Assembly: GCA_044229475.1 (NCBI GenBank) | Contig: JBGASW010000007.1 | Location: 62,054-126,053 of the forward strand | Length of the DNA: 64,000 nt | Reading direction: 5' to 3' | Source of the DNA: Thermoanaerobaculia bacterium | GTDB taxonomy: Bacteria; Acidobacteriota; Thermoanaerobaculia; UBA5066 | In this document: positions 2,963-46,083 of the stretch, in pieces | Numbering within the stretch: position 1 is the first letter of the stretch | How the letters are laid out: each line of letters begins with the position of its first letter | Notes under the pieces: model-generated | Seen by the model: the letters and a program-made list of their open reading frames with translations, nothing else | Databases searched by the model: none | What the model was told of the DNA's origin: nothing | Program-made: the position numbers and the translations under genes

Positions 2963-3892
2963 TCAGACGTCGAGCTCTCCCCTCATCACCAGGACCGCTC
3001 CGCCCTCGACGCGCACGCCGGTTGGCCGGCCGCCGTCGACGAGGACCGTCACGTCCAGCTCGGACGGGCGGCCCATCTCGACGCCCTGGTCGATGAGGAA
3101 ACGGCCGCGCCCGCCCGCGACGCCGCCCGGCACCGCGCCGTGGAGCGCGAGGTAGACGCCCACGGGCCCGGCCGCCGAGCCCGTCGCGGGGTCCTCCGGC
3201 ACGCCCGCGCCCGGCGCGAACATGCGGGCCCTGAGGCGCGTTCCGCCGGGCGCCGCGTCGAACGCGAAGAAGAGGAGACCGAGGACGCCGAGCTCCCGTT
3301 CGACGTGATTGAGCATCCGCGTGTCGGCGAGCGCCGAGGACACCGCTTCGACCGACGCGAGAGGCACCATGAGAAACGTGTTACCGGTCCCGACGGCCTG
3401 GGGAGGGAGTGCCGGGTGGAGCGCGTCGAACGGGACGCCGAGCGCCGCCGCGATCTGGCCCTTCACGTCGTCGCCCGTCACGGGCGCCTTCCACTCGGGC
3501 TTTCCCTGCTCCATCCGCACGCGCGTGACGCGCCCGTCCTTCTTCAGGAGCTCGAGCTTGAGCGGCCCGAACCCGACCTCGATCGTCACCGGGTGAATGC
3601 CGTCCGGCGCGCCGGCGGCGGCCCTCCCGAGCGCCGCCATCACGACGGCCGTCCCGACCGTCGGATGGCCCGCGTACGGGATCTCCTTCACCGGCACGAA
3701 CGTCCGCTGCCAGTAGGCGTGCGCGGCGTCCTTCGCGGGCAGGACGAACGTGGACTCGGAGTAGTTGATCTCCCGCGCGATCGACTGCATCTGCGCCGTC
3801 GTGAGGCCGCGCGCGTCCGGCACGACGAGGAGCGGGTTGCCCGCGAAGGGGCGGTCCGTGAACACGTCGCAGGTGACGAAGGAGACTCTCAT
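2963..3892 (-). CDS. PhzF-family phenazine-biosynthesis-like isomerase
   Basis: 309-aa product with PhzF/DAP-epimerase-fold pattern (MRVSFVTCDVFTDRPFAGNPLLVV ...); start ATG overlaps stop of upstream methyltransferase (ATGA). Confidence 0.8.
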   Translation of the reverse strand: MRVSFVTCDVFTDRPFAGNPLLVVPDARGLTTAQMQSIAREINYSESTFVLPAKDAAHAYWQRTFVPVKEIPYAGHPTVGTAVVMAALGRAAAGAPDGIHPVTIEVGFGPLKLELLKKDGRVTRVRMEQGKPEWKAPVTGDDVKGQIAAALGVPFDALHPALPPQAVGTGNTFLMVPLASVEAVSSALADTRMLNHVERELGVLGLLFFAFDAAPGGTRLRARMFAPGAGVPEDPATGSAAGPVGVYLALHGAVPGGVAGGRGRFLIDQGVEMGRPSELDVTVLVDGGRPTGVRVEGGAVLVMRGELDV

Positions 3893-4605
3893 GGAGACGA
3901 CGTTACCGCCCGGAGGCACGTTCGGAAACGACAGAGGCCGACCATCGGGAGCGCCCGGTCCAGGGCGCCGAGGACGGGGTAGGGGCTCGCGGAGTAGAAG
4001 AGGTCCTCCACGCGGAAGCCCGCCTCTTCGACGAGGCTCACCACGCGCGTGGCGGGGCGCACGGCGATGTGGTCCTCCTGCTGCAGGCCCGGCACGGCGG
4101 CCTTGATCCGCTCGGCCCAGTGGTCCCGGTTCGGCGTGTAGATCGCGAGGGCGCCGCCGGAAACGAGCGACCGGCGCGCGCTCTCGAGGCACGGGACGAG
4201 CACGTCGTCGAGGACGTGCTCGACGAAGTCGGCGAGGAGAACGACGTCGAACGGGCCCCCGGGTGCCGCCGCGAGATCCCGCGCGTCGGCCCTCTCGAAG
4301 CGGACGTTCGAGAGGCCGCGGGCGGCCTGCCCGGCGCGGGCGGCGTCGACTGCGACGCCTGCCGCGTCGATCCCCACGACCTCCGCGACGCACGGGGCGA
4401 GGAAGAACGCCGTGTCGCCGCGCGCGGAGCCGACCTCGAGGACCCGGAGGGACGGAGAGGGGCGGACGATCCGGAGCAGCGCCGCGTCGCGCTCCTCGTA
4501 CTTTCGCCGGTTCCGCAGGAACCAGTGCGGGCGGTACATCCGGCCGTAGTAGGCCGGCCCGTAGACGTCGGCGTTCGGCGCGAACTTCCCGGGTGCATCC
4601 GTCAC
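3889..4605 (-). CDS. Class I SAM-dependent methyltransferase
   Basis: Rossmann-like SAM-binding motif VLEVGSARGDTAFFLA and acidic loop VVGID; 4-nt overlap with downstream PhzF gene. Confidence 0.75.
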   Translation of the reverse strand: MTDAPGKFAPNADVYGPAYYGRMYRPHWFLRNRRKYEERDAALLRIVRPSPSLRVLEVGSARGDTAFFLAPCVAEVVGIDAAGVAVDAARAGQAARGLSNVRFERADARDLAAAPGGPFDVVLLADFVEHVLDDVLVPCLESARRSLVSGGALAIYTPNRDHWAERIKAAVPGLQQEDHIAVRPATRVVSLVEEAGFRVEDLFYSASPYPVLGALDRALPMVGLCRFRTCLRAVTSSP

Positions 4606-4646
4606 GCGATGAGTCTACGCATCTGAAGAGAGAGCCGGCCCCTAGA

Positions 4647-6014
4647 ATGGACTCGATGGCGCGCGTCACGGTGATCGGGGGAGGCTTCGCGGGCGTGGAG
4701 TGCGCGCACCAGCTCCTCCGGCGCGGCCACGCCGTCACGCTCGTCGAGATGCGACCCGTGCGGACGACGGACGCGCACGCGACGGACCGCCTCGCCGAGA
4801 TGGTCTGTTCGAACTCGTTCCGGTCCGACAACCCCGCGAACGCCGTCGGCCTCCTGAAGCGCGAGATGGAGAGCGTCGGGTCCCTGATTCTCGAGGAGGC
4901 GCGCAGGGCCGCGGTCCCGGCCGGCGACGCGCTCGCCGTGGACCGGACGATCTTCGCGGAGGCCGTCACGCGGCGCCTCGCCGGCGAGCCGCTCCTCACG
5001 CTCGTCCGGGGAGAGGCCGAGGCGCTGCCCGACCCCGGCGACGGGTTCGTCGTCGTCGCAACCGGGCCGCTCACCTCGCCCGCGCTCGAGAAGGCGTTGC
5101 TGGGCCTGCTCGGCGAGAAGTACCTCTACTTCTACGATGCCATGGCGCCCATCGTCGAGGCGGCGTCGCTCGACATGGCGAAGCTCTACGCGCTCTCGCG
5201 CTACGGCAAGGGAGGGGGCGACGACTACCTGAACGTCCCGCTCTCCCGCGCCGAGTACGAGGCCTTCGTCGCCGCCCTCCTCGCGGGGGAAAAGGTCCCG
5301 TTCCACGACTTCGAGAAGGCCGTGTACTTCGAAGGATGTCTTCCGGCCGAGGCGATGGCCGAGCGCGGCGTCGAGACTCTGCGCCACGGCCCGATGAAGC
5401 CGTTCGGGCTGCCGGACCCGCGCACGGGCAGGGAGCCGTATGCCGTGGTCCAGCTCCGGCAGGACGACCTCGCGAAGACGCACTTCAACATGGTGGGCTT
5501 CCAGACGAAGCTCAAGGTCGGCGAGCAGCGGCGCGTCTTCCGGATGCTGCCGGGGCTCGAGAACGCGGAGTTCGTCCGGTACGGCATGCTCCACCGCAAC
5601 ACGTACATCAACGGCCCGGCGCACCTCGACCGTTTCTTCCGCTGGCGGAAGGACCCGCGCGTCTTCTTCGCGGGCCAGCTCACCGGCGTCGAGGGCTACC
5701 TCGAGTCCGCCGCGACGGGCCTCATGGTCGGCGCGGCGCTCGCGCAGCTCCTCGAGGGCCGGGAGCCCGCGCCGCTCGCCTTCTCGACGGCGCTCGGCTC
5801 GCTCGCCCGGCATGTCTCGACGCCCCGGGAGGGGGACTTCTCGCCGATGAACGTGACGTTCGGCCTCATCGACGACGCGGACGTCCCGCCGTCGAAGGAT
5901 CGGGCGAAACGCCGCGGGGAGATCGCGCGCCGCGCCCTGGAAGGAGTCGCGCGCTGGAAGACGGAGGCTCTTCCCGTGCCGTCCGTCACGGTCCCCGGCG
6001 CGGGCGCCGCCTAG
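4647..6014 (+). CDS. trmFO: Methylenetetrahydrofolate--tRNA-(uracil54-C5)-methyltransferase TrmFO (Gid)
   Basis: N-terminal FAD-binding VTVIGGGFAGVECA; conserved MVGFQTKL and GYLES motifs of TrmFO; alternative start at 4656. Confidence 0.85.
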   Translation: MDSMARVTVIGGGFAGVECAHQLLRRGHAVTLVEMRPVRTTDAHATDRLAEMVCSNSFRSDNPANAVGLLKREMESVGSLILEEARRAAVPAGDALAVDRTIFAEAVTRRLAGEPLLTLVRGEAEALPDPGDGFVVVATGPLTSPALEKALLGLLGEKYLYFYDAMAPIVEAASLDMAKLYALSRYGKGGGDDYLNVPLSRAEYEAFVAALLAGEKVPFHDFEKAVYFEGCLPAEAMAERGVETLRHGPMKPFGLPDPRTGREPYAVVQLRQDDLAKTHFNMVGFQTKLKVGEQRRVFRMLPGLENAEFVRYGMLHRNTYINGPAHLDRFFRWRKDPRVFFAGQLTGVEGYLESAATGLMVGAALAQLLEGREPAPLAFSTALGSLARHVSTPREGDFSPMNVTFGLIDDADVPPSKDRAKRRGEIARRALEGVARWKTEALPVPSVTVPGAGAA

Positions 6015-36389: not shown

Positions 36390-38027
36390 ATGACTCTGTC
36401 CCGGATTCCCTTCCACCGCCGGCTCGGCTTCAAGATCACGGCCACTGCGGCGGCGGCGATCCTCGTGCCCGTCGCGATCGTGGCGGCCGTCACGATCCGC
36501 GCCCAGCACGACGAGCTCGTGGCGCGCGCGCAGGGCAGCGCCGCGATCCTCTCGGAGACCGTCCGGAGCGCGACGCACGACTTCATGCTGAAGGACCAGC
36601 GCGAGGACGCGTACCGGATCGTCGAGATCGTCGGGCACGAGAGCCTCCGCGAGGGCAGCTCGATCGAGAGCGTCCGGATCTTCAACAAGCAGGGCGCCAC
36701 CGTGTACTCGACCGACCGCGCCGAGATCGGGCGGATCGCGGACAAGAGCGCCGGGGCCTGCGCGCCGTGCCACGGCGGGGCGGGCGCGCCGATCGCGAAC
36801 CCCGACCCCGCGACGCGCAGCCGGATCTCGGCGGTCGGCGACCGGCGCGTCCTCTCGTTCGTGACGCCGATCTACAACGAGGCCGCGTGCGCGGCGGCCG
36901 GCTGCCACGCGGCGCCGAAGGAGCAGCGCGTTCTCGGGCTCCTCGACGTCGCGCTCTCGCTGCGCGACGTGGACGACCGGCGCGCCGCCGCGACGTGGCG
37001 GATCGTCGGGCTGTCGCTTCTCGCGCTCGTCGCCCTGACGGCGCTCGTCTCGGCGATCGTCCGCGTCCTCGTGTTCCGTCCGGTCTCGGACATGCTCGCG
37101 GCGACGAAAGACCTCGCGCACGGCGGCACGCCGGCGCCCCTCCCGATCCGGTCGGACGACGAGCTCGGGATGCTCGGCCGCTCGTTCAACGAGATGAGCG
37201 ACTCGCTGCGCAAGGCCCGCGCGGAGCTCGAGCGTGCCGCGGACGGCCTCGAGCGCCAGGTGGAGGAGCGGACGGCCGCGCTCCAGCGGGCGCAGGAGGC
37301 GCTCGTGCAGTCCGAGAAGCTCGTCTCGCTCGGGACGCTCTCCGCGTCGATCGCCCACGAGATCAACAACCCGCTCGCGGGCATCCTGACGTTCGCGCGC
37401 CTCATGACGCGCACGCTCGAGTCGGGCGAGGTCGACGACGCGGCGCGCGCGGCCTGCCTGAAGAACCTCGGGCTGATTCAGCGCGAGACCGAGCGCTGCA
37501 CGCGAATCGTGCGGAGCCTCCTCGATTTCGCGCGGGCGCGCCCGATCGAGCTCCACGCGGTCGACGCCGTCGCCGCTCTCGACGAGGCCGTGTCGCTCAC
37601 GCAGCACAAGCTCCAGCTCGAGCAGGTCGCCGTGACGAAGGATCTCGACGGCGCGGCGGTCGTCCAGGGCGACTTCGGCCAGCTGCGGCAGGTCTTCGTG
37701 AACCTCATCCTGAACGCCTGCGACGCGATGCCGGGCGGCGGGACGCTCACCGTGACCGCGCGGAAGGTGGACGACGGGCGCACCGTGGAGATCGCCCTCT
37801 CGGACACGGGCGCGGGCATCGCGCCCGAGCACCTCTCGCGGATCTTCGACCCGTTCTTCACGACGAAGCAGATGGGCACGGGCCTCGGCCTCTCCGTCGC
37901 GTACGGCGTCGTCGAGAAGCACGGCGGCTCGATGAAGGCGGTCAGCCGCGTCGGCGCGGGGACGACGATGACGATCCGGCTCCCGCTCGCCGGGGAGACG
38001 GCGGCGCCGGCGGGCGCCGCCGCGTGA
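36390..38027 (+). CDS. Sensor histidine kinase with periplasmic c-type heme-binding sensor domain
   Basis: TM-periplasmic domain-TM-HAMP-HisKA (SIAHEINNPL)-HATPase_c (GTGLGLS); periplasmic domain has CAPCH (CxxCH) and CAAAGCH (Cx4CH) motifs. Confidence 0.8.
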   Translation: MTLSRIPFHRRLGFKITATAAAAILVPVAIVAAVTIRAQHDELVARAQGSAAILSETVRSATHDFMLKDQREDAYRIVEIVGHESLREGSSIESVRIFNKQGATVYSTDRAEIGRIADKSAGACAPCHGGAGAPIANPDPATRSRISAVGDRRVLSFVTPIYNEAACAAAGCHAAPKEQRVLGLLDVALSLRDVDDRRAAATWRIVGLSLLALVALTALVSAIVRVLVFRPVSDMLAATKDLAHGGTPAPLPIRSDDELGMLGRSFNEMSDSLRKARAELERAADGLERQVEERTAALQRAQEALVQSEKLVSLGTLSASIAHEINNPLAGILTFARLMTRTLESGEVDDAARAACLKNLGLIQRETERCTRIVRSLLDFARARPIELHAVDAVAALDEAVSLTQHKLQLEQVAVTKDLDGAAVVQGDFGQLRQVFVNLILNACDAMPGGGTLTVTARKVDDGRTVEIALSDTGAGIAPEHLSRIFDPFFTTKQMGTGLGLSVAYGVVEKHGGSMKAVSRVGAGTTMTIRLPLAGETAAPAGAAA

Positions 38028-38605
38028 GCGAGGTCCTCCTCCTGTGGATCGGAGTTCGGGACCCGGCCGCGGATCTCCTCGAAGGCGTTCGCCGGAGCGT
38101 GGCGCGCGAGTTCGAGATCGACGCCCGCGTGAGCGTCTCGGCCGAGCGCCCCGAGGACGCGTTCGACGCGCGCCGGGGTCAGCACTCGTCCACGCGGATC
38201 CTCGCGTGGCTGCAGGAGCGCCGGGAGGGGGCGCACCGGGTCCTCGGCGTGACGGACGCCGACCTCTTCATCCCGATCCTGACCTTCGTCTTCGGCGAGG
38301 CGCAGCTCGGCGGCCGCGCCGCGGTCGTCTCGACGGCCCGCCTCGGCGACACCCCGCTGATCCCCGGCGAGCCGGCGCGCATCGCCCTGCGCCTCCAGAA
38401 GGAGGCCGTGCACGAGCTCGGGCACACGTTCGGCCTCCTGCACTGCGCCGACGCGCGCTGCGCCATGGCGCGTTCGCCGAGCCTGAGACACGTCGACGAG
38501 AAATCCCCCGTCCTTTGCCGCGCCTGCCGCGCCCGCACCCGCGAACTCTCGGAGAACGGAGACGTCCATGAGCAAGAAGAACACGCGAATCCTGATCGTC
38601 GATGA
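38024..38605 (+). CDS. Archaemetzincin-like zinc metalloprotease (peptidase M54 family)
   Basis: HELGHTFGLLHC zinc motif plus CX4C...CX2C zinc-ribbon; GTG start overlapping HK stop (GTGA); 3' end overlaps RR start by ~38 nt. Confidence 0.65.
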   Translation: MSEVLLLWIGVRDPAADLLEGVRRSVAREFEIDARVSVSAERPEDAFDARRGQHSSTRILAWLQERREGAHRVLGVTDADLFIPILTFVFGEAQLGGRAAVVSTARLGDTPLIPGEPARIALRLQKEAVHELGHTFGLLHCADARCAMARSPSLRHVDEKSPVLCRACRARTRELSENGDVHEQEEHANPDRR

Positions 38606-39959
38606 CGAGGAGATCGTCCGGGAGTCCCTCTCGGGCTGGCTCGGCAAGGACGGCTACACGATCGGGACCGCGCCCGACGGGCTGACGGCCCTGAAGCTCA
38701 TGGAGGAGCACCCGTGGACGATCCTCCTCGTGGATCTCAAGATGCCCGGCATCGACGGGCTCGAGGTCCTGAGGCGCGTCAAGGAGCGCTGGAGCGACAC
38801 GGCCGTCCTCATCATGACGGCCTACGCCACCGTCGACACGGCCGTCAACGCGATGAAGGCCGGCGCGTTCGACTACGTCGTCAAGCCGTTCGACCCCGAG
38901 GAGGTGAGCCTCGTCGTCGAGAAGATCGTCGCGCAGCAGGCGCTCGTGCGCGAGAACGTGATCCTCCGGAAGGCCCTGAAGAAGGAGTACCGGTTCCACG
39001 ACCTCGTCACGAAGAGCCCGGCGCTTCTCGCGACGCTCGAGCTCGCGAAGACGGCCGCGCGCAGCCCGTCCACGGTCCTCGTCCTCGGGGAGAGCGGAAC
39101 CGGCAAGGAGCTCCTCGCCCGCGCGATCCACGCCGAGAGCCCGCGCAGCGGCAAGCCGTTCGTCGCGATGTCCTGCGCGGCCCTGACGGAGACGCTCCTC
39201 GAGTCCGAGCTCTTCGGGTACGAGAAGGGCGCGTTCACGGGCGCGAACGGCCGGCGGGAAGGGAAGTTCGAAGCGGCGAGCGGCGGCACGCTTTTCCTCG
39301 ACGAGATCGGCGACATCAGCCCGAAACTCCAGCTCGACCTCCTGCGCGTCCTCGAGGAGCGCCGGGTCACGCGGGTGGGCGGCACGGATTCGCTGCCCGT
39401 CGACGTCCGGATCATCGCCGCGACGAACCGGGACCTCCGGCGGGCGGTCGAGGAGGGCCGATTCCGGCAGGATCTCTTCTACCGCCTGAACGTCATCACG
39501 ATCACGCTCCTCCCGCTGCGCGAGAGGAAGGAGGACATTCCCCTGCTCGTCGACCGGCTTCTCGAACAGCTCTCGTCGGAGCTCAAGCGCCCCGCGGAGC
39601 GCGTCTCGCCCGAGGCGATGGCGATCCTCCTCGCCCACTCGTGGCCCGGGAACGTCCGCGAGCTGCGCAACGTCCTCGAGCGCGCGATCGTGGTCTCCGA
39701 GGGCCCCGTCCTCGAGGCCCGGCACCTCGGTCTCGTCCTCCAGGACGGCGCCGCGGCGCCCGTTCCCGAGCACCCGGCCTCGCTCGAGGAGATCGAGCGC
39801 CAGTACATCGGAAGCGTCCTCAAGCAGAGCGGCGGCAACGTGACGCAGGCCGCCCGCATCCTCGACATCGACCGCGTGACTCTCTACGCCAAAATTCGGA
39901 AGTACGGGCTGAAACGCGCGGAAGACGGGGAGTTCGAACCCGCAACGCCCGCCCGCTGA
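38568..39959 (+). CDS. Sigma-54-dependent Fis-family response regulator (NtrC-like)
   Basis: REC domain (ILIVDDE ... DLKMPG), AAA+ sigma-54 activator domain (GESGTGKE, GAFTGA, ESELFGYEKGAFTG), C-terminal Fis HTH. Confidence 0.9.
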   Translation: MSKKNTRILIVDDEEIVRESLSGWLGKDGYTIGTAPDGLTALKLMEEHPWTILLVDLKMPGIDGLEVLRRVKERWSDTAVLIMTAYATVDTAVNAMKAGAFDYVVKPFDPEEVSLVVEKIVAQQALVRENVILRKALKKEYRFHDLVTKSPALLATLELAKTAARSPSTVLVLGESGTGKELLARAIHAESPRSGKPFVAMSCAALTETLLESELFGYEKGAFTGANGRREGKFEAASGGTLFLDEIGDISPKLQLDLLRVLEERRVTRVGGTDSLPVDVRIIAATNRDLRRAVEEGRFRQDLFYRLNVITITLLPLRERKEDIPLLVDRLLEQLSSELKRPAERVSPEAMAILLAHSWPGNVRELRNVLERAIVVSEGPVLEARHLGLVLQDGAAAPVPEHPASLEEIERQYIGSVLKQSGGNVTQAARILDIDRVTLYAKIRKYGLKRAEDGEFEPATPAR

Positions 39960-39983
39960 GAATCACAACCCTCCGTTGAGAAA

Positions 39984-40020
39984 ACGAACGCGCGGGCCTC
40001 CCGCGCGTTCTTTCGTTCTT
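39984..40020 (+). terminator. Rho-independent terminator after the sigma-54 regulator gene
   Basis: Perfect hairpin GAACGCGCGGG-CCTC-CCGCGCGTTC followed by TTTCGTTCTT. Confidence 0.6.
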
Positions 40021-40079
40021 CAAGGGCAAGACGCTGCGCCCGTGCGTGTTGCAGGCGCGACGAGCCGCCGCGCGAAGCG

Positions 40080-40095
40080 TGGCCCGGTCCGTGCA
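40080..40095 (+). promoter_or_regulatory. Candidate sigma-54 (-24/-12) promoter TGGCCC-N5-GTGCA
   Basis: GG and GC dinucleotides at correct 12-nt spacing, ~15 nt upstream of first operon ORF; downstream of an NtrC-type activator gene. Confidence 0.35.
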
Positions 40096-40109
40096 ATCCC
40101 TCCGTCGCC

Positions 40110-40361
40110 ATGATGAACGACACCACGACCGCCTGCCCCTGGCTGAAGCAAGTCGTGATGCTCTATTGCGACGCCTGCCCGACGAAAAAGATGGTCCCGC
40201 GCGACCAGCTCGTGTCCATGGGTCCGTGCCTCGCCGGCTCCTTCTCGGAGTGCGCGATGTACCGCGAGATGGTCCAGAGGCTCGAGGCCGGCGCCGCCCG
40301 CAACGACGATGAAACGGAAGCGAGCCTCGCGGCCGCTTCCGGGAGGGAGGTCCCGTCATGA
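40110..40361 (+). CDS. Hypothetical Cys-rich small protein (83 aa)
   Basis: 5 Cys (C-x10-C-x2-C-x16-C-x7-C), coding codon bias, stop overlaps next start (ATGA). Confidence 0.4.
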   Translation: MMNDTTTACPWLKQVVMLYCDACPTKKMVPRDQLVSMGPCLAGSFSECAMYREMVQRLEAGAARNDDETEASLAAASGREVPS

Positions 40362-40441
40362 TCGCCACCGTTCCGCTCGCCGTTCTCGCCCTCCTGACGC
40401 TCCTCGCGATGGCCCGCCAGAGCCGGGTCCACGCCGCGTGA
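40358..40441 (+). CDS. Putative 27-aa hydrophobic membrane peptide (MIATVPLAVLALLTLLAMARQSRVHAA)
   Basis: Strong SD GGGAGGGAGG 7 nt upstream; single TM; followed by SD+start of Fe-S subunit gene. Confidence 0.3.
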   Translation: MIATVPLAVLALLTLLAMARQSRVHAA

Positions 40442-40457
40442 GAAGGAGAAAGACGCG

Positions 40458-41366
40458 ATGAACCTGAACCGCCGCAACCTTCTCAAGATCGCCGGCGCCG
40501 CCGGTGCGGGAGCCGCCCTCACCGGCGGTGCCCTCGCGTCGGCCACGACGCGAGGGGCCGCGAAGGACGCCGTCGGCGTTCTCGTCGACACGACGCGCTG
40601 CGTCGGCTGCCGCGGCTGCGAGGCCGCGTGCTCCGAAGCGAACGCGCTCGCCGCTCCCGACATGCCGGGCGACGACGCCGTGTTCGCCGCGCGCCGCCGG
40701 ACGGGACCCACGAGCTTCACGGTCGTGAACAAGTCGACCGCGAAGAGCCCCGCGGGCGAGGACCGCTACGCGAAGACGCAGTGCATGCACTGCGTGACGC
40801 CCGCCTGCGCGTCGGGCTGCGTCGTGAAGGCGCTCGAGAAGACGGCCTCGGGGCCGGTCGTGTACCACGAGGACCGCTGCCTCGGGTGCCGCTACTGCAT
40901 GATCGCGTGCCCCTTCAGCGTGCCGAAGTACGAGTACACGAAGGCGGCGCCCCTCGTGAAGAAGTGCACGTTCTGCGCGGCGCGCCAGGAGAAGGGCCTT
41001 CCGCCGGCCTGCACGGACGCGTGCCCCTCGGGCGCGCTCACGTTCGGCAAGCGGGCCGACCTCCTCGAAGAGGCCAAGACCCGCATCTACCAGAACCCGA
41101 CGAAGTACGTCCACGAGATCTACGGGGAGGACGAGGCCGGCGGCACGAGCTGGCTCTACATCTCCGACGTCTCCTCGGCGAGCCTCTCGCTCCCGCAGGA
41201 CATCGTGAAGAAGTCCTACCCCGAGATGGCCGACGGCGCGCTCTCGGCCGTCCCGTTCGTCGTGACCCTGTGGCCGCCGCTCCTCATGGGTCTCTACACC
41301 TTCAGCAAGCGGGTGGGCGACGTCGCCGGCCGCGAGAGCGCGCACAAGGGAGACGGCCATGAGTGA
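40458..41366 (+). CDS. Tat-exported 4x[4Fe-4S] ferredoxin-type subunit with C-terminal membrane anchor (HybA/PsrB/NrfC-like)
   Basis: Twin-arginine signal NRRNLLK; four Cys clusters (CVGCRGCEAAC, CMHCVTPACASGC, CLGCRYCMIACP, CTFC...CTDACP); C-terminal TM helix. Confidence 0.85.
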   Translation: MNLNRRNLLKIAGAAGAGAALTGGALASATTRGAAKDAVGVLVDTTRCVGCRGCEAACSEANALAAPDMPGDDAVFAARRRTGPTSFTVVNKSTAKSPAGEDRYAKTQCMHCVTPACASGCVVKALEKTASGPVVYHEDRCLGCRYCMIACPFSVPKYEYTKAAPLVKKCTFCAARQEKGLPPACTDACPSGALTFGKRADLLEEAKTRIYQNPTKYVHEIYGEDEAGGTSWLYISDVSSASLSLPQDIVKKSYPEMADGALSAVPFVVTLWPPLLMGLYTFSKRVGDVAGRESAHKGDGHE

Positions 41367-42582
41367 GACCTTCGACCGTGTGGCGGCTTCGGCCTTCCTC
41401 CGCGAAAAAGTCTTTCTCGGCATGGAGCCGAAGACGTACGCGAAGAGCCTCTTCACGAAGACGAACGCGATCTTCGCGGCGATCCTCGCCGTCGGCCTGC
41501 CCACGATGGCCTACAGGTTCTGGCACGGCATGGGCGCGGTGAGCAACCTCTCGCAGACGAACCCCTGGGGCATCTGGGTGGCGTTCGATATCGTGTGCGG
41601 CGTCGCGCTCGCCGCCGGCGGCTACACCGTGGCCGCGGCGGTCTACCTGTTCGGACAGAAGCAGTTCGCCCCGGTCCTCCGCCCCGCGATCCTCACGGGC
41701 TTCCTCGGCTACGCCTTCGTCCTCGTCGGCCTGCTCGTCGATCTCGGGCAGCCGTGGCGGCTCCCGTACCAGTTCTTCCTCACGCCCGGCACGACCGCCG
41801 TCATGTACGAGGTCGGCTGGTGCGTCTTCCTGTACCTGATGGTCCTCGCGCTCGAGTTCCTTCCGGCGGCGCTCGAGTGGCTCGGGATGACGAAAGTTCG
41901 CCGATTCATGAGCGCGATCTCGATCGGGATCATCGTCCTCGGCGTCACGCTCTCGACGCTCCACCAGTCCTCGCTCGGCGCCTTCTTCCTCATGTCGCCC
42001 GGCAAGCTCCACCCCCTGTGGTACTCGCCGTTCCTCCCGATCTTCTTCTTCGTGTCCTCGATCGCAGCGGGCATCGGGATGGTGATCTTCGAGAGCTCGG
42101 TCTCGCACCGGGCCTTCCAGGACCGGCTCGACCCCGAGGCGCACGTCGACATGGACGCGCTGCAGCTCGGGCTCGCCAAGGGCGGCGCGGTCGTCCTCTT
42201 CGCGTACTTCTTCATCCGCCTGCAGGGCCTCGTCGCGTCCGGCCGGTTCGACCTCCTCCTGACCGGGTGGGGCGCCTGGTTCGCGCTCGAGATGGTCGGC
42301 TTCGTCCTCCTGCCGTCGCTCCTCTTCGCCTTCGCCGTGAGGACCCAGAATGCGAAGCTCGCGCGCGCCGCCGGCGTCATGACGGTGCTCGGCGTCGTCC
42401 TCAACCGCTTCAACGTGTCTCTGATCGCGTTCAACTGGAACGTGCCGGACCGGTACGTTCCCGCGCTCGGAGAGATCGTCATCTCGATCACGATCGTCAC
42501 GCTCGGCGTCCTCGTGTTCCGCTGGATCGTCAACCGCATGCCCGTGCTCCGCGAGCATCCGGACTGGCGCGGCGCCCACTGA
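41359..42582 (+). CDS. NrfD/PsrC/HybB-family polytopic quinone-interacting membrane subunit
   Basis: 407 aa, ~10 TM helices, NrfD-family pattern; 8-nt overlap with Fe-S subunit gene. Confidence 0.85.
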   Translation: MSETFDRVAASAFLREKVFLGMEPKTYAKSLFTKTNAIFAAILAVGLPTMAYRFWHGMGAVSNLSQTNPWGIWVAFDIVCGVALAAGGYTVAAAVYLFGQKQFAPVLRPAILTGFLGYAFVLVGLLVDLGQPWRLPYQFFLTPGTTAVMYEVGWCVFLYLMVLALEFLPAALEWLGMTKVRRFMSAISIGIIVLGVTLSTLHQSSLGAFFLMSPGKLHPLWYSPFLPIFFFVSSIAAGIGMVIFESSVSHRAFQDRLDPEAHVDMDALQLGLAKGGAVVLFAYFFIRLQGLVASGRFDLLLTGWGAWFALEMVGFVLLPSLLFAFAVRTQNAKLARAAGVMTVLGVVLNRFNVSLIAFNWNVPDRYVPALGEIVISITIVTLGVLVFRWIVNRMPVLREHPDWRGAH

Positions 42583-42599: not shown

Positions 42600-43265
42600 A
42601 TGAACGAAAGCAGCCTCCTCAGCCCGCACGCCACGAAGGCCCTCGAGTACCTGCTCGCGGTCTCGTACCTCCTGCTCTTCATCCCCTTCTGGCGCTTCGT
42701 GAACGGCGCGACGATCGCGCAATCCTTCGCGCTCGGATGGTTTCAGGTCCCCGAGAACGTCCACCTGCACCGCGGGCACTCGTGGGCCAAGACGTTCGGC
42801 GGCGCCGTCGCGGTCGGCCTGGACGACTTCGCCCACAAGCTGATCGGCCCGCTGGACGAGGTGCGGTTCCCCGCGGTCGGCACGCCGCTCCGGCAGGGCC
42901 AGAAGGCCTTCACGGTCGTCGCGGACGGCAAGCCCTTCGACGTCGTCTCGCCCGTGGACGGCAACGTCGTCGCGGTCAACGAGGTCGTGCACGCGCACCC
43001 GGCCGACGCCGTCCGCGATCCGTACGGAACGGGCTGGCTCCTGAAGGTCGAGCCGCGCTGGCTGACCGCGAACCTCAAGAACCTCGTCTCCGGCGACTCC
43101 GCCCGCCGCTTCCTGGATGCGGCCGCCCAGGCGCTCTCGGGCCGCATGAGCCCGGAGCTCGGCGTCGTCCTCCAGGACGGCGGCGCCCCGGTCCACGGCA
43201 TCGCCCGCGAAATCGACCCCGAGCACTGGGACGAGGTCGTGCGCCACCACCTGAAGGGCGAGTGA
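42600..43265 (+). CDS. Membrane-anchored glycine-cleavage-H (GcvH)-fold protein, lipoyl-Lys position conserved
   Basis: N-terminal TM helix then region colinear with GcvH (HRGHSWAK ... AVGLDDFAHKLIGPLDEV ... VVADGKPFDVVSPVDGNVVAVNE ... DPYGTGWLLKV). Confidence 0.65.
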   Translation: MNESSLLSPHATKALEYLLAVSYLLLFIPFWRFVNGATIAQSFALGWFQVPENVHLHRGHSWAKTFGGAVAVGLDDFAHKLIGPLDEVRFPAVGTPLRQGQKAFTVVADGKPFDVVSPVDGNVVAVNEVVHAHPADAVRDPYGTGWLLKVEPRWLTANLKNLVSGDSARRFLDAAAQALSGRMSPELGVVLQDGGAPVHGIAREIDPEHWDEVVRHHLKGE

Positions 43266-43275
43266 GGAGGACGCG

Positions 43276-43626
43276 ATGAAAGCCCGCATCCATTTCCTCG
43301 CGGCGACCCTCCTTCTCGCCCTTCTCTCGGCGACCCTCCTCGCGGGCGCGCTGCCGAACCTCCCGAAGGAGAAGGCGCTCCCGCAGGGCGACGGCAGCCC
43401 CGGCGTCGTCACCTTCCGCCACGACTCCCACGTCGACGCCTCGCGCCCCGACTGCACGACGTGTCACCCGACGCTCTTCCCCATCGTCAAACGCACCGCC
43501 TCTTCGGCCGCCCCCGCCGCGATCCGCCACGCCGACATGGAAAAAGGCAAGAGCTGCGGCTCCTGCCACGACGGCAAGAGCGCCCACGGCCTCGACGACT
43601 GCGGGACGTGCCACAAGGCCAAGTGA
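43276..43626 (+). CDS. Triheme c-type cytochrome, cytochrome c7/c3-like
   Basis: Signal peptide; three CxxCH (CTTCH, CGSCH, CGTCH); VTFRHDSH motif as in Geobacter PpcA. Confidence 0.8.
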   Translation: MKARIHFLAATLLLALLSATLLAGALPNLPKEKALPQGDGSPGVVTFRHDSHVDASRPDCTTCHPTLFPIVKRTASSAAPAAIRHADMEKGKSCGSCHDGKSAHGLDDCGTCHKAK

Positions 43627-43634
43627 GGTGACCC

Positions 43635-44333
43635 ATGACGCCTCTTGAGTTCCTCCAGCTCGCCGGCATCTTCCTCGCGGGTCTCGTCGTCCGCGCCCTC
43701 GCCTTCACGCTCGTCCTCGCGGTCTGCGCGCTCCCGATCCTCGCGGCCTGGGCGCTCTGGCGCGCCTGGCAGAAGCTGCGGGACCGCAGCATCGGCCTCG
43801 TGGACGTGGGCGGGCTCGAGCTCGCCGAGGCGCACCACTACGCCCCCGGCCACACGTGGCTCCAGCGGCGGGCGCGCGGCTCGGTCCGCGTCGGGCTCGA
43901 CGAGATCGCGGGCCGGCTCCTGCACGGGCCCACGAGCGTCACGCTCCCGAGGCCGGGCACCGTCCTGGCCGCCGGCCTCCCCGCCGCCACCGTGAGCTGC
44001 CACGGGCGCGCCGCCGCGATTCCGGCGCCCATCTCGGGCACGGTCGTCGCGACCAACCCGGCCGTCGTCCGCGACCCCTCGCTCCTCGAGGAGTCGCGCT
44101 ACCGGGACGGCTGGCTCTTCGCGATGAAGCCCGCGACGGCCGCGTTCCTGACGCTCCCGACCGGCGAGACCGCGCGCTCCTGGTTCAAGGACGAGACGGC
44201 GCGCTTCTCGCGCGCGCTCGAGACCGAGCTCGGCCTCCTCGCCGCGGACGGCGGCGAGCTCGTGGTCGAGGCGCCCGCGCTTCTCTCGGAGGAGAAGTGG
44301 CAGCGCCTCGTCTCGGAGTTCCTGAAGGGCTGA
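43635..44333 (+). CDS. Membrane-anchored GcvH-fold protein lacking the lipoyl lysine (Cys-His at equivalent site)
   Basis: Two N-terminal TM helices then GcvH-like region (YAPGHTWLQ ... VGLDEIAGRLLHGP ... SGTVVATNPAVVRDPSLL ... DGWLFAMKP); K replaced (VSCHGRAA). Confidence 0.6.
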   Translation: MTPLEFLQLAGIFLAGLVVRALAFTLVLAVCALPILAAWALWRAWQKLRDRSIGLVDVGGLELAEAHHYAPGHTWLQRRARGSVRVGLDEIAGRLLHGPTSVTLPRPGTVLAAGLPAATVSCHGRAAAIPAPISGTVVATNPAVVRDPSLLEESRYRDGWLFAMKPATAAFLTLPTGETARSWFKDETARFSRALETELGLLAADGGELVVEAPALLSEEKWQRLVSEFLKG

Positions 44334-44336
44334 CGC

Positions 44337-44792
44337 TCAGCGCTTGCCGAAGAGGCTGTCGAAGGCCGACCGCGCGCCGTCGGGCGTGTCGGCGGCCTTC
44401 GTGCCCGTGAGGTCCATGCTCACGACGGGCGCGTAGAACGTGCAGTCGTTCGCCCGCGACTTCGCCGGGATCGCGACCGGGACCGGCTGGCGGCACTGCG
44501 CGGGAGCTGCCCCGTCGAAGTGGCGGCACTGGCTGCATGCGTGGAGCGCGGCCCCGCACTTCCGGCAGACCGAGGCTTTCGTCACCTCGGCGTCGTTCTT
44601 CTCGCCGCAGGCCTTGCAGCGAAAGACTTCGTCGCGGTGGCGGTCCGCGCCGCGCCCGCGGGGCGCGCCTTCCAGCCGGGCGGGGCGGTCGGAGGAGAAC
44701 CCGCCGCCCCCGCCGGTGCCGCCAGAGCCACCCGTGCGCGCGCCGTCCTGATAGCCCTTCGAGCGGTACTTGCGATCACCCATCCGCATCAT
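44337..44792 (-). CDS. Hypothetical zinc-ribbon protein
   Basis: Gly-rich basic N-terminus, then CKACG...CRKCG...CSQCRHFD Cys pairs. Confidence 0.4.
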   Translation of the reverse strand: MMRMGDRKYRSKGYQDGARTGGSGGTGGGGGFSSDRPARLEGAPRGRGADRHRDEVFRCKACGEKNDAEVTKASVCRKCGAALHACSQCRHFDGAAPAQCRQPVPVAIPAKSRANDCTFYAPVVSMDLTGTKAADTPDGARSAFDSLFGKR

Positions 44793-44839
44793 TCTACGGT
44801 CCGGCGCGCGGGCCGTAGAATCCTCCGCCGAGGGACTCC

Positions 44840-45202
44840 ATGAGACTCCTCCTTCGCATCCTCATCAACGCGGCGGCCCTGTGGGTCGCGGCGTCGGTCG
44901 TGGACGGCATCCACGCCGGCGGGGCGGGCTCCATCCTCGCGGTCGCGGTCGTCTTCGGCGTCGTGAACGCGCTCGTGCGCCCGATCCTCAAGCTCCTGAG
45001 CTGCCCGATCATCTTCCTGACGCTCGGGCTCTTCACCCTCGTCCTCAACGCGCTCATGCTCATGCTCACGGCGTGGGCCTCCAGGCAGCTCGGGATCGAC
45101 TTCACGGTCGCCGGCTTCTGGCCCTCCGCCTTCCTGGGCGCGCTCATCGTCTCCATCGTCTCGACGGTCCTGTCCTGGTTCATCCCGGACAAGGCCGCGT
45201 GA
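44840..45202 (+). CDS. Small 4-TM membrane protein (phage-holin-4/DUF360-like)
   Basis: 120 aa, four TM helices, pattern of the YqgE/holin-IV family. Confidence 0.55.
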   Translation: MRLLLRILINAAALWVAASVVDGIHAGGAGSILAVAVVFGVVNALVRPILKLLSCPIIFLTLGLFTLVLNALMLMLTAWASRQLGIDFTVAGFWPSAFLGALIVSIVSTVLSWFIPDKAA

Positions 45203-45231
45203 TCCAACACCCGAAAAGGAGCTCTTTCCCC

Positions 45232-46083
45232 ATGCGCGTTCCGGTCACCCTGATGGCTCTCGTTCTCCTCGCCGGCTGCGGCAAGCAGCAGCCCGCGCTC
45301 GACGTGAAGACCGCGGCGCCCGCAAAGGCTCCCGCGGCGTCCGCGTCCGCCCCCGCGTCCGGCGTCATGCCCGCCGCGCCCGAAGCGGCGCTCGTCACCG
45401 TCTCCGGCACCGTCCTCGAGACGATGGACGCGGCCGAGTACACCTACATGCGCCTGAAGACCGCGACCGGCGAGACTTGGGCCGCGATCAACAAGACGAA
45501 GGTCGCGAAGGGCGACGCCGTCACGGTCACGAACGCGATGGTCATGGACGGCTTCCAGAGCAAGACGCTCAATCGCACGTTCGACCACATCCTCTTCGGC
45601 GTGCTCGCGACGCCCGGCGCCCCTGCGGCCGCGGCTCCCGCCGCACCCGCCGCGCCGATGGCGTCCGGCCACCAGCCGGCGGTCGCCCCCGCGCCCGCGA
45701 CGCAGGAGCAGATGGCCGCCCAGCACGGGCAGGCCGCGGGCGGCCCCGCGGACGCGCCGGACGTGAAGGTCCCGAAGGCCGAAGGGCAGAACGCGAAGAC
45801 GGTCGCGGAGCTCTGGGCGCAGCGCGCCTCGCTCAAGGGCAAGGAAGTGGCCGTGAAGGCCAAGATCGTGAAGGTCACGAACAGCGTCATGGGGAAGAAC
45901 TGGCTCCACGTGCGCGACGGCTCGGGCTCGAAGGCCGCGAAGGACAACGACCTCACGGTCACGACCGACGTGGTCGCGAAGGTGGGCGACGTCGTGACCG
46001 TGACCGGCACGGTCTCCGTCGACAAGGACTTCGGGGCCGGGTACGCGTACCCCGTCATCATCGAAAACGCGAAGCTGAAGTAG
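45232..46083 (+). CDS. Hypothetical lipoprotein with two tandem beta-domains
   Basis: Signal + lipobox LLAGCG; internal duplication (GDAVTVTNAMV / GDVVTVTGTVSV); SD AAAAGGAG. Confidence 0.5.
   Translation: MRVPVTLMALVLLAGCGKQQPALDVKTAAPAKAPAASASAPASGVMPAAPEAALVTVSGTVLETMDAAEYTYMRLKTATGETWAAINKTKVAKGDAVTVTNAMVMDGFQSKTLNRTFDHILFGVLATPGAPAAAAPAAPAAPMASGHQPAVAPAPATQEQMAAQHGQAAGGPADAPDVKVPKAEGQNAKTVAELWAQRASLKGKEVAVKAKIVKVTNSVMGKNWLHVRDGSGSKAAKDNDLTVTTDVVAKVGDVVTVTGTVSVDKDFGAGYAYPVIIENAKLK

Follow-up and report, generated by a model that had tools for sequence, protein, structure and literature searches.

A conserved candidate sigma-54 promoter close to the start codon of an Hmc-like operon in Thermoanaerobaculia

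In the glnAp2 layout, a sigma-54 promoter is activated by NtrC from enhancer sites roughly 100-150 bp upstream, and contact is made by DNA looping. AtoC recognizes two copies of a repeated 20-bp site upstream of atoDAEB. Regulation of the Desulfovibrio Hmc redox complex involves rrf1 and rrf2 and is not known to involve a sigma-54 activator. The locus described here is in a 64-kb stretch of DNA (the window) with a G+C content of 72%, whose source is Thermoanaerobaculia (Acidobacteriota) according to the source names of an identical protein. That protein, ORF1 (open reading frame 1), is encoded by the first gene of an Hmc-like respiratory operon of ∼6 kb. The sequence TGGCCCGGTCCGTGCA directly upstream of it, at positions 40080-40095 of the forward (+) strand, is very probably the -24/-12 sigma-54 promoter of the operon, and the neighboring two-component system would be its activator. 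The type of switch, consisting of sigma-54, activator and enhancer, is conventional. Unusual and conserved is the distance between promoter and ATG, which would leave essentially no leader.

Leaderless mRNAs have been defined as those with a leader of 5 nt or less (PMC12754779) or of less than 10 nt (PMC5243855). They are known to arise from a sigma-70 -10 box situated next to the open reading frame, both in Deinococcus-Thermus (PMC12340547) and in mycobacteria (cited within PMC5243855). For sigma-54, a genome-wide study in Escherichia coli stresses unusually long leaders (PMC4591121), and figures of Geobacter sulfurreducens promoters mark ribosome-binding sites between the start site and the start codon (PMC2725144). 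The literature searched contained no description of sigma-54-dependent leaderless mRNAs. With respect to the phylum, RpoN was reported in three of three Acidobacteria genomes in a 2011 survey (PMC3372290), which is support at the phylum level only; literature searches on sigma-54 in Acidobacteria or Thermoanaerobaculia turned up nothing beyond this one survey table.

The candidate promoter motif and its conservation

The motif displays GG at 40081-40082 and GC at 40093-40094, exactly 10 nt apart and set within TGGC...TGC. It ends 14 nt before the ATG of ORF1 at 40110. A first-pass annotation of the window had pointed to this -24/-12 motif; its sequence and coordinates were given correctly, and in the comparison of loci it stands out as a strict phylogenetic footprint whose position upstream of the first operon gene is fixed. 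The genome set used for comparison consists of 37 loci (the window and 36 others), with one genome per species, from Thermoanaerobaculia, Holophagales and unclassified Acidobacteriota; the ORF1 sequences are 47-84% identical. The search pattern TGG[CT]-N8-[TC]GC, which fixes five bases by construction, is found just 5′ of the ATG in all 37 loci and always reads TGGC and TGC. Bases not forced by the pattern are also highly conserved: all 37 loci have C at position 4 and T at position 13, C6 is present in 34 and G7 in 32, and the columns flanking the motif mostly carry less than 0.4 bits. Anchored on the ATG, the motif starts at -30 in 18 loci, at -31 in seven and at -33 in 12. The background is low: 10 other matches to the pattern are present in ∼88,000 positions (both strands of the surrounding 1.2 kb; ∼1e-4 per position). 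In a MAFFT alignment of 16 diverse loci, made free of any pattern, the columns of TGGC and of TGC are again invariant. The consensus of the family, TGGCnCG-N4-(T/G)TGC(G/A), agrees with the TGGCACG-N4-TTGCW core of the published consensus of Barrios et al., mrNrYTGGCACG-N4-TTGCWNNw (quoted in PMC2725144).

As a test of the predicted position, 59 further metagenome loci were fetched, 51 of which are informative and non-duplicate. The motif is 27-34 nt before the ATG in 49 of these 51 loci and somewhere upstream in 50. The distance is 29-34 nt in 41 loci and 27-28 nt in eight, and one locus has a 33-nt spacer; another displays GGGC-N8-TGCA with a 39-nt spacer. Five of the eight loci with the shortest distance have the near-canonical TGGCAC(G/C)-N4-ATGC. 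In one sublineage the sequence is TGGCACG-N4-ATGCA.

Several points weigh against assignment of the motif to sigma-54. The GG-N10-GC arrangement is uninformative by itself, with 1608 matches in the window, and more specific patterns occur there at about the expected frequency: TGGC-N8-TGCW is observed twice (1.19 expected) and the published consensus with up to two mismatches three times (3.89 expected). Relative to the consensus, TGGCCCGGTCCGTGCA has C in place of A at position 5 and G in place of T at position 12. A matrix scan, proposed in the first-pass annotation, gave a divided outcome. The RpoN matrix was built from 90 predicted G. sulfurreducens sites, a part of which had been verified by primer extension (Additional file 3, PMC2725144); it is a foreign, Geobacter-derived matrix and not that of Barrios. 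TGGCCCGGTCCGTGCA ranks high on it, at 8 of 127,968 window positions, and its score of 7.7 bits is borderline, being under that of 98% of the Geobacter training sites, with ∼28 equal or better matches in mononucleotide shuffles. In addition, rpoN was not found by a six-frame search for the RpoN box in the 64-kb window and the 36 genome loci, and it is from conservation only that binding of the activator to the upstream repeats (described below) is inferred.

Judged by the window alone, the motif is not beyond chance; once the orthologous loci are compared, it is far beyond chance. Thus a sigma-54 site too weak to call from a single sequence can be established by phylogenetic footprinting, here with ∼90 loci. 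A matrix made from the 37 orthologous sites detected no second comparable site in the window or in the loci.

Predicted transcription start and leader of ORF1

From the rule that GC lies around -12 (quoted in PMC2725144), transcription is predicted to start at 40104-40107 (+), which is 10-13 nt past the C of GC. In the window, the A of the ATG follows this C at a distance of 16 nt. If GC is at approximately -12, the leader would be ∼4 nt in the window, or 3-6 nt for the start positions considered. Within the genome set, motif position 28 (40107) is G in 29/37 loci, and C immediately precedes the ATG in 36/37. In the genome set, 14, 15 or 17 nt separate the motif from the ATG; in 49 of the 51 metagenome loci this spacer is 11-18 nt. 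These values predict a leader of 0-1 nt in the sublineage with 11-nt spacers and of 0-8 nt in the family as a whole. A near-leaderless geometry had been suggested previously on the basis of a ∼15-nt distance to the first open reading frame; the distance is 14 nt, and the geometry turns out to be conserved across the family.

The start codon of ORF1 is ATG in 37/37 loci, and in the window the ATG at 40110 is the first possible start past an in-frame stop at 39978. No Shine-Dalgarno-like tetramer is present in the predicted leader of any of the 37 loci. The predicted transcript thus combines an AUG start with the lack of a Shine-Dalgarno sequence, as in leaderless mRNAs. As the AUG would be only ∼3-6 nt from the 5′ end of the mRNA, it is therefore proposed that ORF1 is translated in a leaderless manner. 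The only ORF1 loci with long spacers, L086 (∼170-240) and L095 (∼1940-2000), have spacers of 33 and 39 nt. Both display a Shine-Dalgarno sequence (AAGGA and GAGG, respectively) at the proper distance, and L095 also has GGGC instead of TGGC. This would fit with the short-spacer majority doing without a Shine-Dalgarno sequence. Selection may act on the spacing, given that both loci that no longer have the short spacer have acquired a Shine-Dalgarno sequence. On balance we favor the view that these loci represent a class of sigma-54-dependent leaderless transcripts, in which activation of the promoter delivers an mRNA translated without a Shine-Dalgarno sequence and the spacing is selected accordingly. 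If the predicted start is right, sigma-54 promoters join the routes to leaderless mRNAs, a route not described in the papers searched.

The TGGC of the motif (40080-40083) and the GCCA at the start codon (40107-40110) are reverse complements of each other. Both are invariant in the family, the spacing between them varies and there is no covariation; the complementarity is probably a coincidence.

The reading frame downstream (40110-40361, +) encodes 83 amino acids with five conserved cysteines in the pattern CPWLK...MLYCDACP...PCL...C, and matches no Pfam or NCBIfam family. ORF1 is a real gene, as 58 homologues align from Met1. Alternatively, the promoter could be real and translation of ORF1 could start internally at Met17, which would provide a leader of ∼50 nt with the purine-rich stretch AAGGAAG/GAAGCAAG as the Shine-Dalgarno sequence. 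Met17 is invariant, one database entry (P0055) begins there, and in many loci AAGGAAGTCGTGATG resembles a Shine-Dalgarno sequence at 7-nt spacing. However, the nine codons before Met17 vary with the same bias toward the third position as the gene body (entropy per codon position of 0.31/0.24/0.80, compared with 0.28/0.22/0.85), and at least 90% of sequences conserve Cys9 and Pro10; these observations make an internal start unlikely. Furthermore, an in-frame ATG is at a fixed distance from the promoter in 37/37 loci even though the length of the N-terminal segment varies. An internal start is considered improbable, and the start at 40110 is retained here.

Regulator genes, upstream repeats and terminator

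Three genes precede the motif on the same strand. The first (36390-38027, +) encodes a sensor histidine kinase, which by Pfam displays HAMP, HisKA and HATPase_c domains after an N-terminal region of ∼230 amino acids without a Pfam match. The second (38003-38605, +; start approximate) encodes a Peptidase_M54, archaemetzincin-like protein (Pfam E = 1e-18); it sits between the kinase and activator genes and overlaps the activator start by ∼38 nt. The third (38568-39959, +; stop codon TGA at 39957-39959) encodes a sigma-54 response regulator with receiver, Sigma54_activat AAA+, AAA lid and HTH_8 domains (Pfam). The Sigma54_activat match has E = 1.1e-70, and the loop reads ESELFGYEKGAFTGA, with GAFTGA from 39228. 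The gene next door is thus an NtrC-type activator with an intact GAFTGA loop, as had been annotated before. The kinase is most similar in NCBIfam to AtoS (212 bits; cut-off 646) and ZraS (176 bits; cut-off 479), and the activator to AtoC (502 bits; cut-off 714), ZraR (416; cut-off 760) and NtrC (409; cut-off 558.6). Because all scores are under the curated equivalog cut-offs, the pair is not orthologous to AtoSC, ZraSR or NtrBC.

The gene order kinase, Peptidase_M54, activator, ORF1, HmcB-like, HmcC-like is kept in 32/36 loci. In 32/36 loci the activator gene is directly upstream on the same strand, with 69-98% identity and an intact GAFTGA or GSFTGA. Four genome loci without adjacent regulators still keep the putative promoter. 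In the metagenome-assembled genome CAWDEX01, ORF1 paralogues are found on two contigs (L032:5953-5983 and L036:5953-5983), both of which have the same repeat unit, GTAGAGAAGCTCAAC, as well as the -24/-12 motif. Genes for the kinase, the peptidase and the activator adjoin L036 only and not L032. This is the picture expected for one activator with two targets.

Upstream activator sequences had been proposed to be present 80-150 bp before the promoter, and a search for these located two tandem repeat units of that kind at 39955-39989 (+), within this distance range. These are candidate enhancer sites. Unit 1, GCTGAGAATCACAAC (39955-39969), overlaps the TGA stop codon of the activator gene and is in register with unit 2, GTTGAGAAAACGAAC (39975-39989), with a period of 20 bp. 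The last four nucleotides of unit 2 are common to the terminator stem described below. The consensus of the repeat family is G(T)TGAGAAnnnCAAC, 5 nt, then GTTGAGnAnnnGAAC, where each unit represents an imperfect GTTG-N7-CAAC dyad. The search for unit 2 was anchored on the pattern GT[ATG]GAG, which fixes six bases by construction and matched in 35/37 loci. Among positions that were not forced, AAC is found at positions 13-15 in 33/35 loci and CC just before the unit in 32-34/35. Coding constraint cannot explain the repeat units, because they are conserved even beyond the activator stop codon. No further copy of the unit is present in the window.

Measured from its start, the proximal unit is 102-106 nt upstream of TGGC in 30/35 loci, and the remaining five are at 94 or 113-115 nt; the sequence between unit and TGGC is not conserved. 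In the metagenome loci, the distances are also mostly 102-106 nt, otherwise 91-94, 113 or 124 nt. Such a constant spacing (∼104 bp, or one helical turn more or less) suggests that the sites have to be on the correct helix face, and offsets of about one or two turns may be read as the expected signature of looping from one helix face. A weaker element is found between the putative enhancer and the promoter. Its family pattern is AA-N4-TTG; in the window the conserved TTG occupies 40049-40051 (+) and precedes the -24 element by ∼30 nt. Of the 37 loci, 27 have T in column -31 and 31 have T in column -30. One may guess at an IHF-like bend site or at a third half-site for the activator. In loci L010-L029, the element reads ACAAGCAGTTGACACC, which contains a perfect TTGACA without a -10 partner, ∼31-37 nt upstream of TGGC.

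Could the conserved block be the operator of another DNA-binding protein, or a promoter of the sigma-70 family or of the ECF (extracytoplasmic function) type? Consistent with this are the failure to find rpoN in the window or the 36 loci, the absence of the consensus A at position 5 in most loci and the TTGACA hexamer ∼31 nt upstream of TGGC in L010-L029. Direct reading of these loci, however, reveals no -10-like hexamer 16-18 nt downstream of TTGACA, and a simple consensus scan of 38500-41500 detected no sigma-70-type promoter. Moreover, the invariant bases are exactly GG and GC, with a preceding T in each case, and the C that follows GG, at sigma-54 spacing, and the motif co-occurs with a GAFTGA activator and with upstream repeats at enhancer distance. 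Such a site has little probability, and a sigma-54 promoter is the preferred interpretation.

Between the activator gene and the promoter there is a hairpin followed by a T-rich tail, resembling an intrinsic terminator. The hairpin (39986-40010, +) starts 27 nt past the activator stop codon. Its stem, GAACGCGCGGG/CCCGCGCGTTC, has 11 perfect pairs, nine of them G-C, with a 3-nt loop, and is followed by the tail TTTCGTTCTT (40011-40020), which has seven T residues in 10. The RNA folds at -24.6 kcal/mol (z = -3.55 relative to shuffles). The segment 39986-40020 thus has the G+C-rich hairpin and U-tract just past a stop codon that characterize rho-independent terminators. GAAC in the 5′ arm also belongs to the second repeat unit. 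The window and all nine of its closest relatives retain the hairpin, with one compensatory change from G-C to U-A. In distant loci the region folds weakly, and no comparable hairpin with T-tract is found; the terminator is therefore a trait of close relatives and not of the whole family. The first-pass annotation had placed a terminator here at the end of the regulator operon. The hairpin is indeed terminator-like and ends the kinase/peptidase/activator set, and it is confined to the closest relatives.

The terminator also bears on the proposal that the conserved block is an RNA element, i.e., a translation signal or structure in a read-through transcript from the activator gene, with ORF1 lacking a promoter of its own. 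There is no clear terminator between the activator gene and ORF1 in distant relatives, and TGGC is complementary to GCCA at the start codon, both of which would be compatible with the proposal. In the window, on the other hand, a strong terminator is upstream of the block. RNAalifold predicts only four invariant pairs for the promoter-to-start region (-2.4 kcal/mol), with variable spacing and no covariation, and the RNA element was rejected because of this four-pair consensus fold without covariation. The bases are conserved in the manner of a two-block DNA site, the motif is kept in loci without the upstream activator gene, and Rfam gave no match for 39500-40600 at E up to 1. An RNA element is thus very improbable. 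A functionless chance match in a genome with 72% G+C, for which the window-level counts at expectation and the low score on the foreign matrix could be cited, is refuted, to the point of practical certainty, by 37/37 genome loci and 50/51 metagenome loci, with a fixed offset in the genome set and neighboring columns that have drifted.

The first-pass reading of the locus is supported in all its computationally testable parts. With sigma-54 control as the preferred interpretation, the following sequence of events is hypothesized. Sigma-54 RNA polymerase would bind the motif at 40080-40095 as a closed complex. The membrane histidine kinase (36390-38027) would phosphorylate the activator (38568-39959), which would assemble on the two tandem 15-bp sites at 39955-39989, centered ∼125 and ∼145 bp upstream of the predicted start. 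DNA looping would bring the activator to the polymerase, and sigma-54 would be remodeled via the GAFTGA loop with the use of ATP. Transcription would start at ∼40104-40107 and place the AUG ∼3-6 nt from the 5′ end of the mRNA (0-8 nt across the family). ORF1 would be translated in a leaderless manner, and ordinary Shine-Dalgarno sites would serve the downstream genes. In the window genome and its nine closest relatives, the hairpin at 39986-40020 may insulate the operon from read-through of the regulator genes.

The Hmc-like operon and comparison with known systems

The second gene of the operon, ORF2 (40358-40441, +), encodes a 27-amino-acid hydrophobic peptide. Its start overlaps the ORF1 stop and is preceded by the Shine-Dalgarno sequence GGGAGGGAGG; the conserved C-terminus of ORF1, SGREVPS, coincides with this Shine-Dalgarno sequence (GGGAGG) and the overlapping ORF2 start. 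Next are genes for an HmcB-like 4Fe-4S protein predicted to be Tat-exported (40458-41366, +) and an HmcC/NrfD-like membrane subunit (41359-42582, +), both assigned by Pfam. The NCBIfam match to HmcB is 353 bits (cut-off 420; E = 9.5e-106) and that to HmcC 519 bits (cut-off 550; E = 6e-156). These two genes are syntenic in nearly every locus whose sequence reaches that far. Further operon genes, at 42737-46083 (+), encode a 180-amino-acid protein, a triheme cytochrome c7-type protein, a GcvH-like protein and a 437-amino-acid protein. No 16-heme HmcA, HmcE or HmcF was recognized among the operon proteins scanned. Judged by its predicted proteins, the operon is Hmc-like and is not a canonical Hmc complex.

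The 18-mer TCGAGCGGTACTTGCGAT at 44759-44776 (+) is in the start region of the 437-amino-acid reading frame (TTG at 44770). It is identical in L003-L008 and one base off in L002, and it was recurrent in the scan with the ortholog matrix but is without the GG. The best match of the window to the Geobacter RpoN matrix, GCGGCACAGGAAATGCT (12.5 bits), is elsewhere, at 2936-2952 on the reverse (-) strand. It is intergenic. A PhzF-like gene (2963-5074, -) stops 11 nt before it, and ∼55 nt after it is the ATG of a gene for a 178-amino-acid protein (2346-2882, -) with a lipoprotein-like N-terminus and a purine-rich Shine-Dalgarno sequence. GCGGCACAGGAAATGCT may be a second sigma-54 promoter, with a normal leader. 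A metagenome scan detected no relatives of the 178-amino-acid protein.

The locus provides a testable regulatory wiring for an uncultured group, in which a sensor kinase and a sigma-54 activator would be placed over an Hmc-like quinone-linked redox module in Thermoanaerobaculia and Holophagales. The candidate binding repeats, the promoter and the probable start site of the proposed switch are defined to the base.

In its layout the locus can be compared with NtrC and glnAp2. It shares with this system a -24/-12 element in which 10 nt separate GG from GC, a neighboring kinase gene and a receiver/AAA+/HTH_8 activator with GAFTGA, and two tandem activator-type sites ∼125 and ∼145 bp upstream, with the helical phase kept. 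It differs in that the targets are respiratory and not nitrogen genes, and the activator is under the NtrC cut-off (409 vs 558.6 bits). The promoter is also only 11-18 nt from the ATG, and there is therefore no room for a leader with a Shine-Dalgarno sequence. AtoS/AtoC and ZraS/ZraR of E. coli represent the best NCBIfam matches of the kinase and activator, and there too the target operon adjoins the regulator genes, but the repeat sequence, the target genes and the phylum are different, and here a Peptidase_M54 gene is inserted between kinase and activator.

The RpoN redox promoters of G. sulfurreducens (fdnG, dcuB; PMC2725144) are similar in that respiratory or electron-transfer operons are under sigma-54 control. 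Compared with the Geobacter RpoN consensus, TTGGCACGGTTTTTGCT (PMC2725144), the sites found here are G+C-rich in the spacer, and they score low on the Geobacter matrix (median 7.8 bits). With the leaderless genes transcribed from sigma-70 promoters, the locus has in common a promoter element that abuts the start codon, an ATG start and the lack of a Shine-Dalgarno sequence. Here, however, it is a sigma-54 -12 box that would abut the start codon, with dependence on an activator, and the predicted leader is 0-8 nt and not strictly 0. Lastly, the two core genes are most similar to hmcB and hmcC of the Desulfovibrio Hmc system (HmcABCDEF), but both products are under the curated cut-offs, and ORF1, a triheme c7-type cytochrome and a GcvH-like protein are found instead of the other Hmc components.

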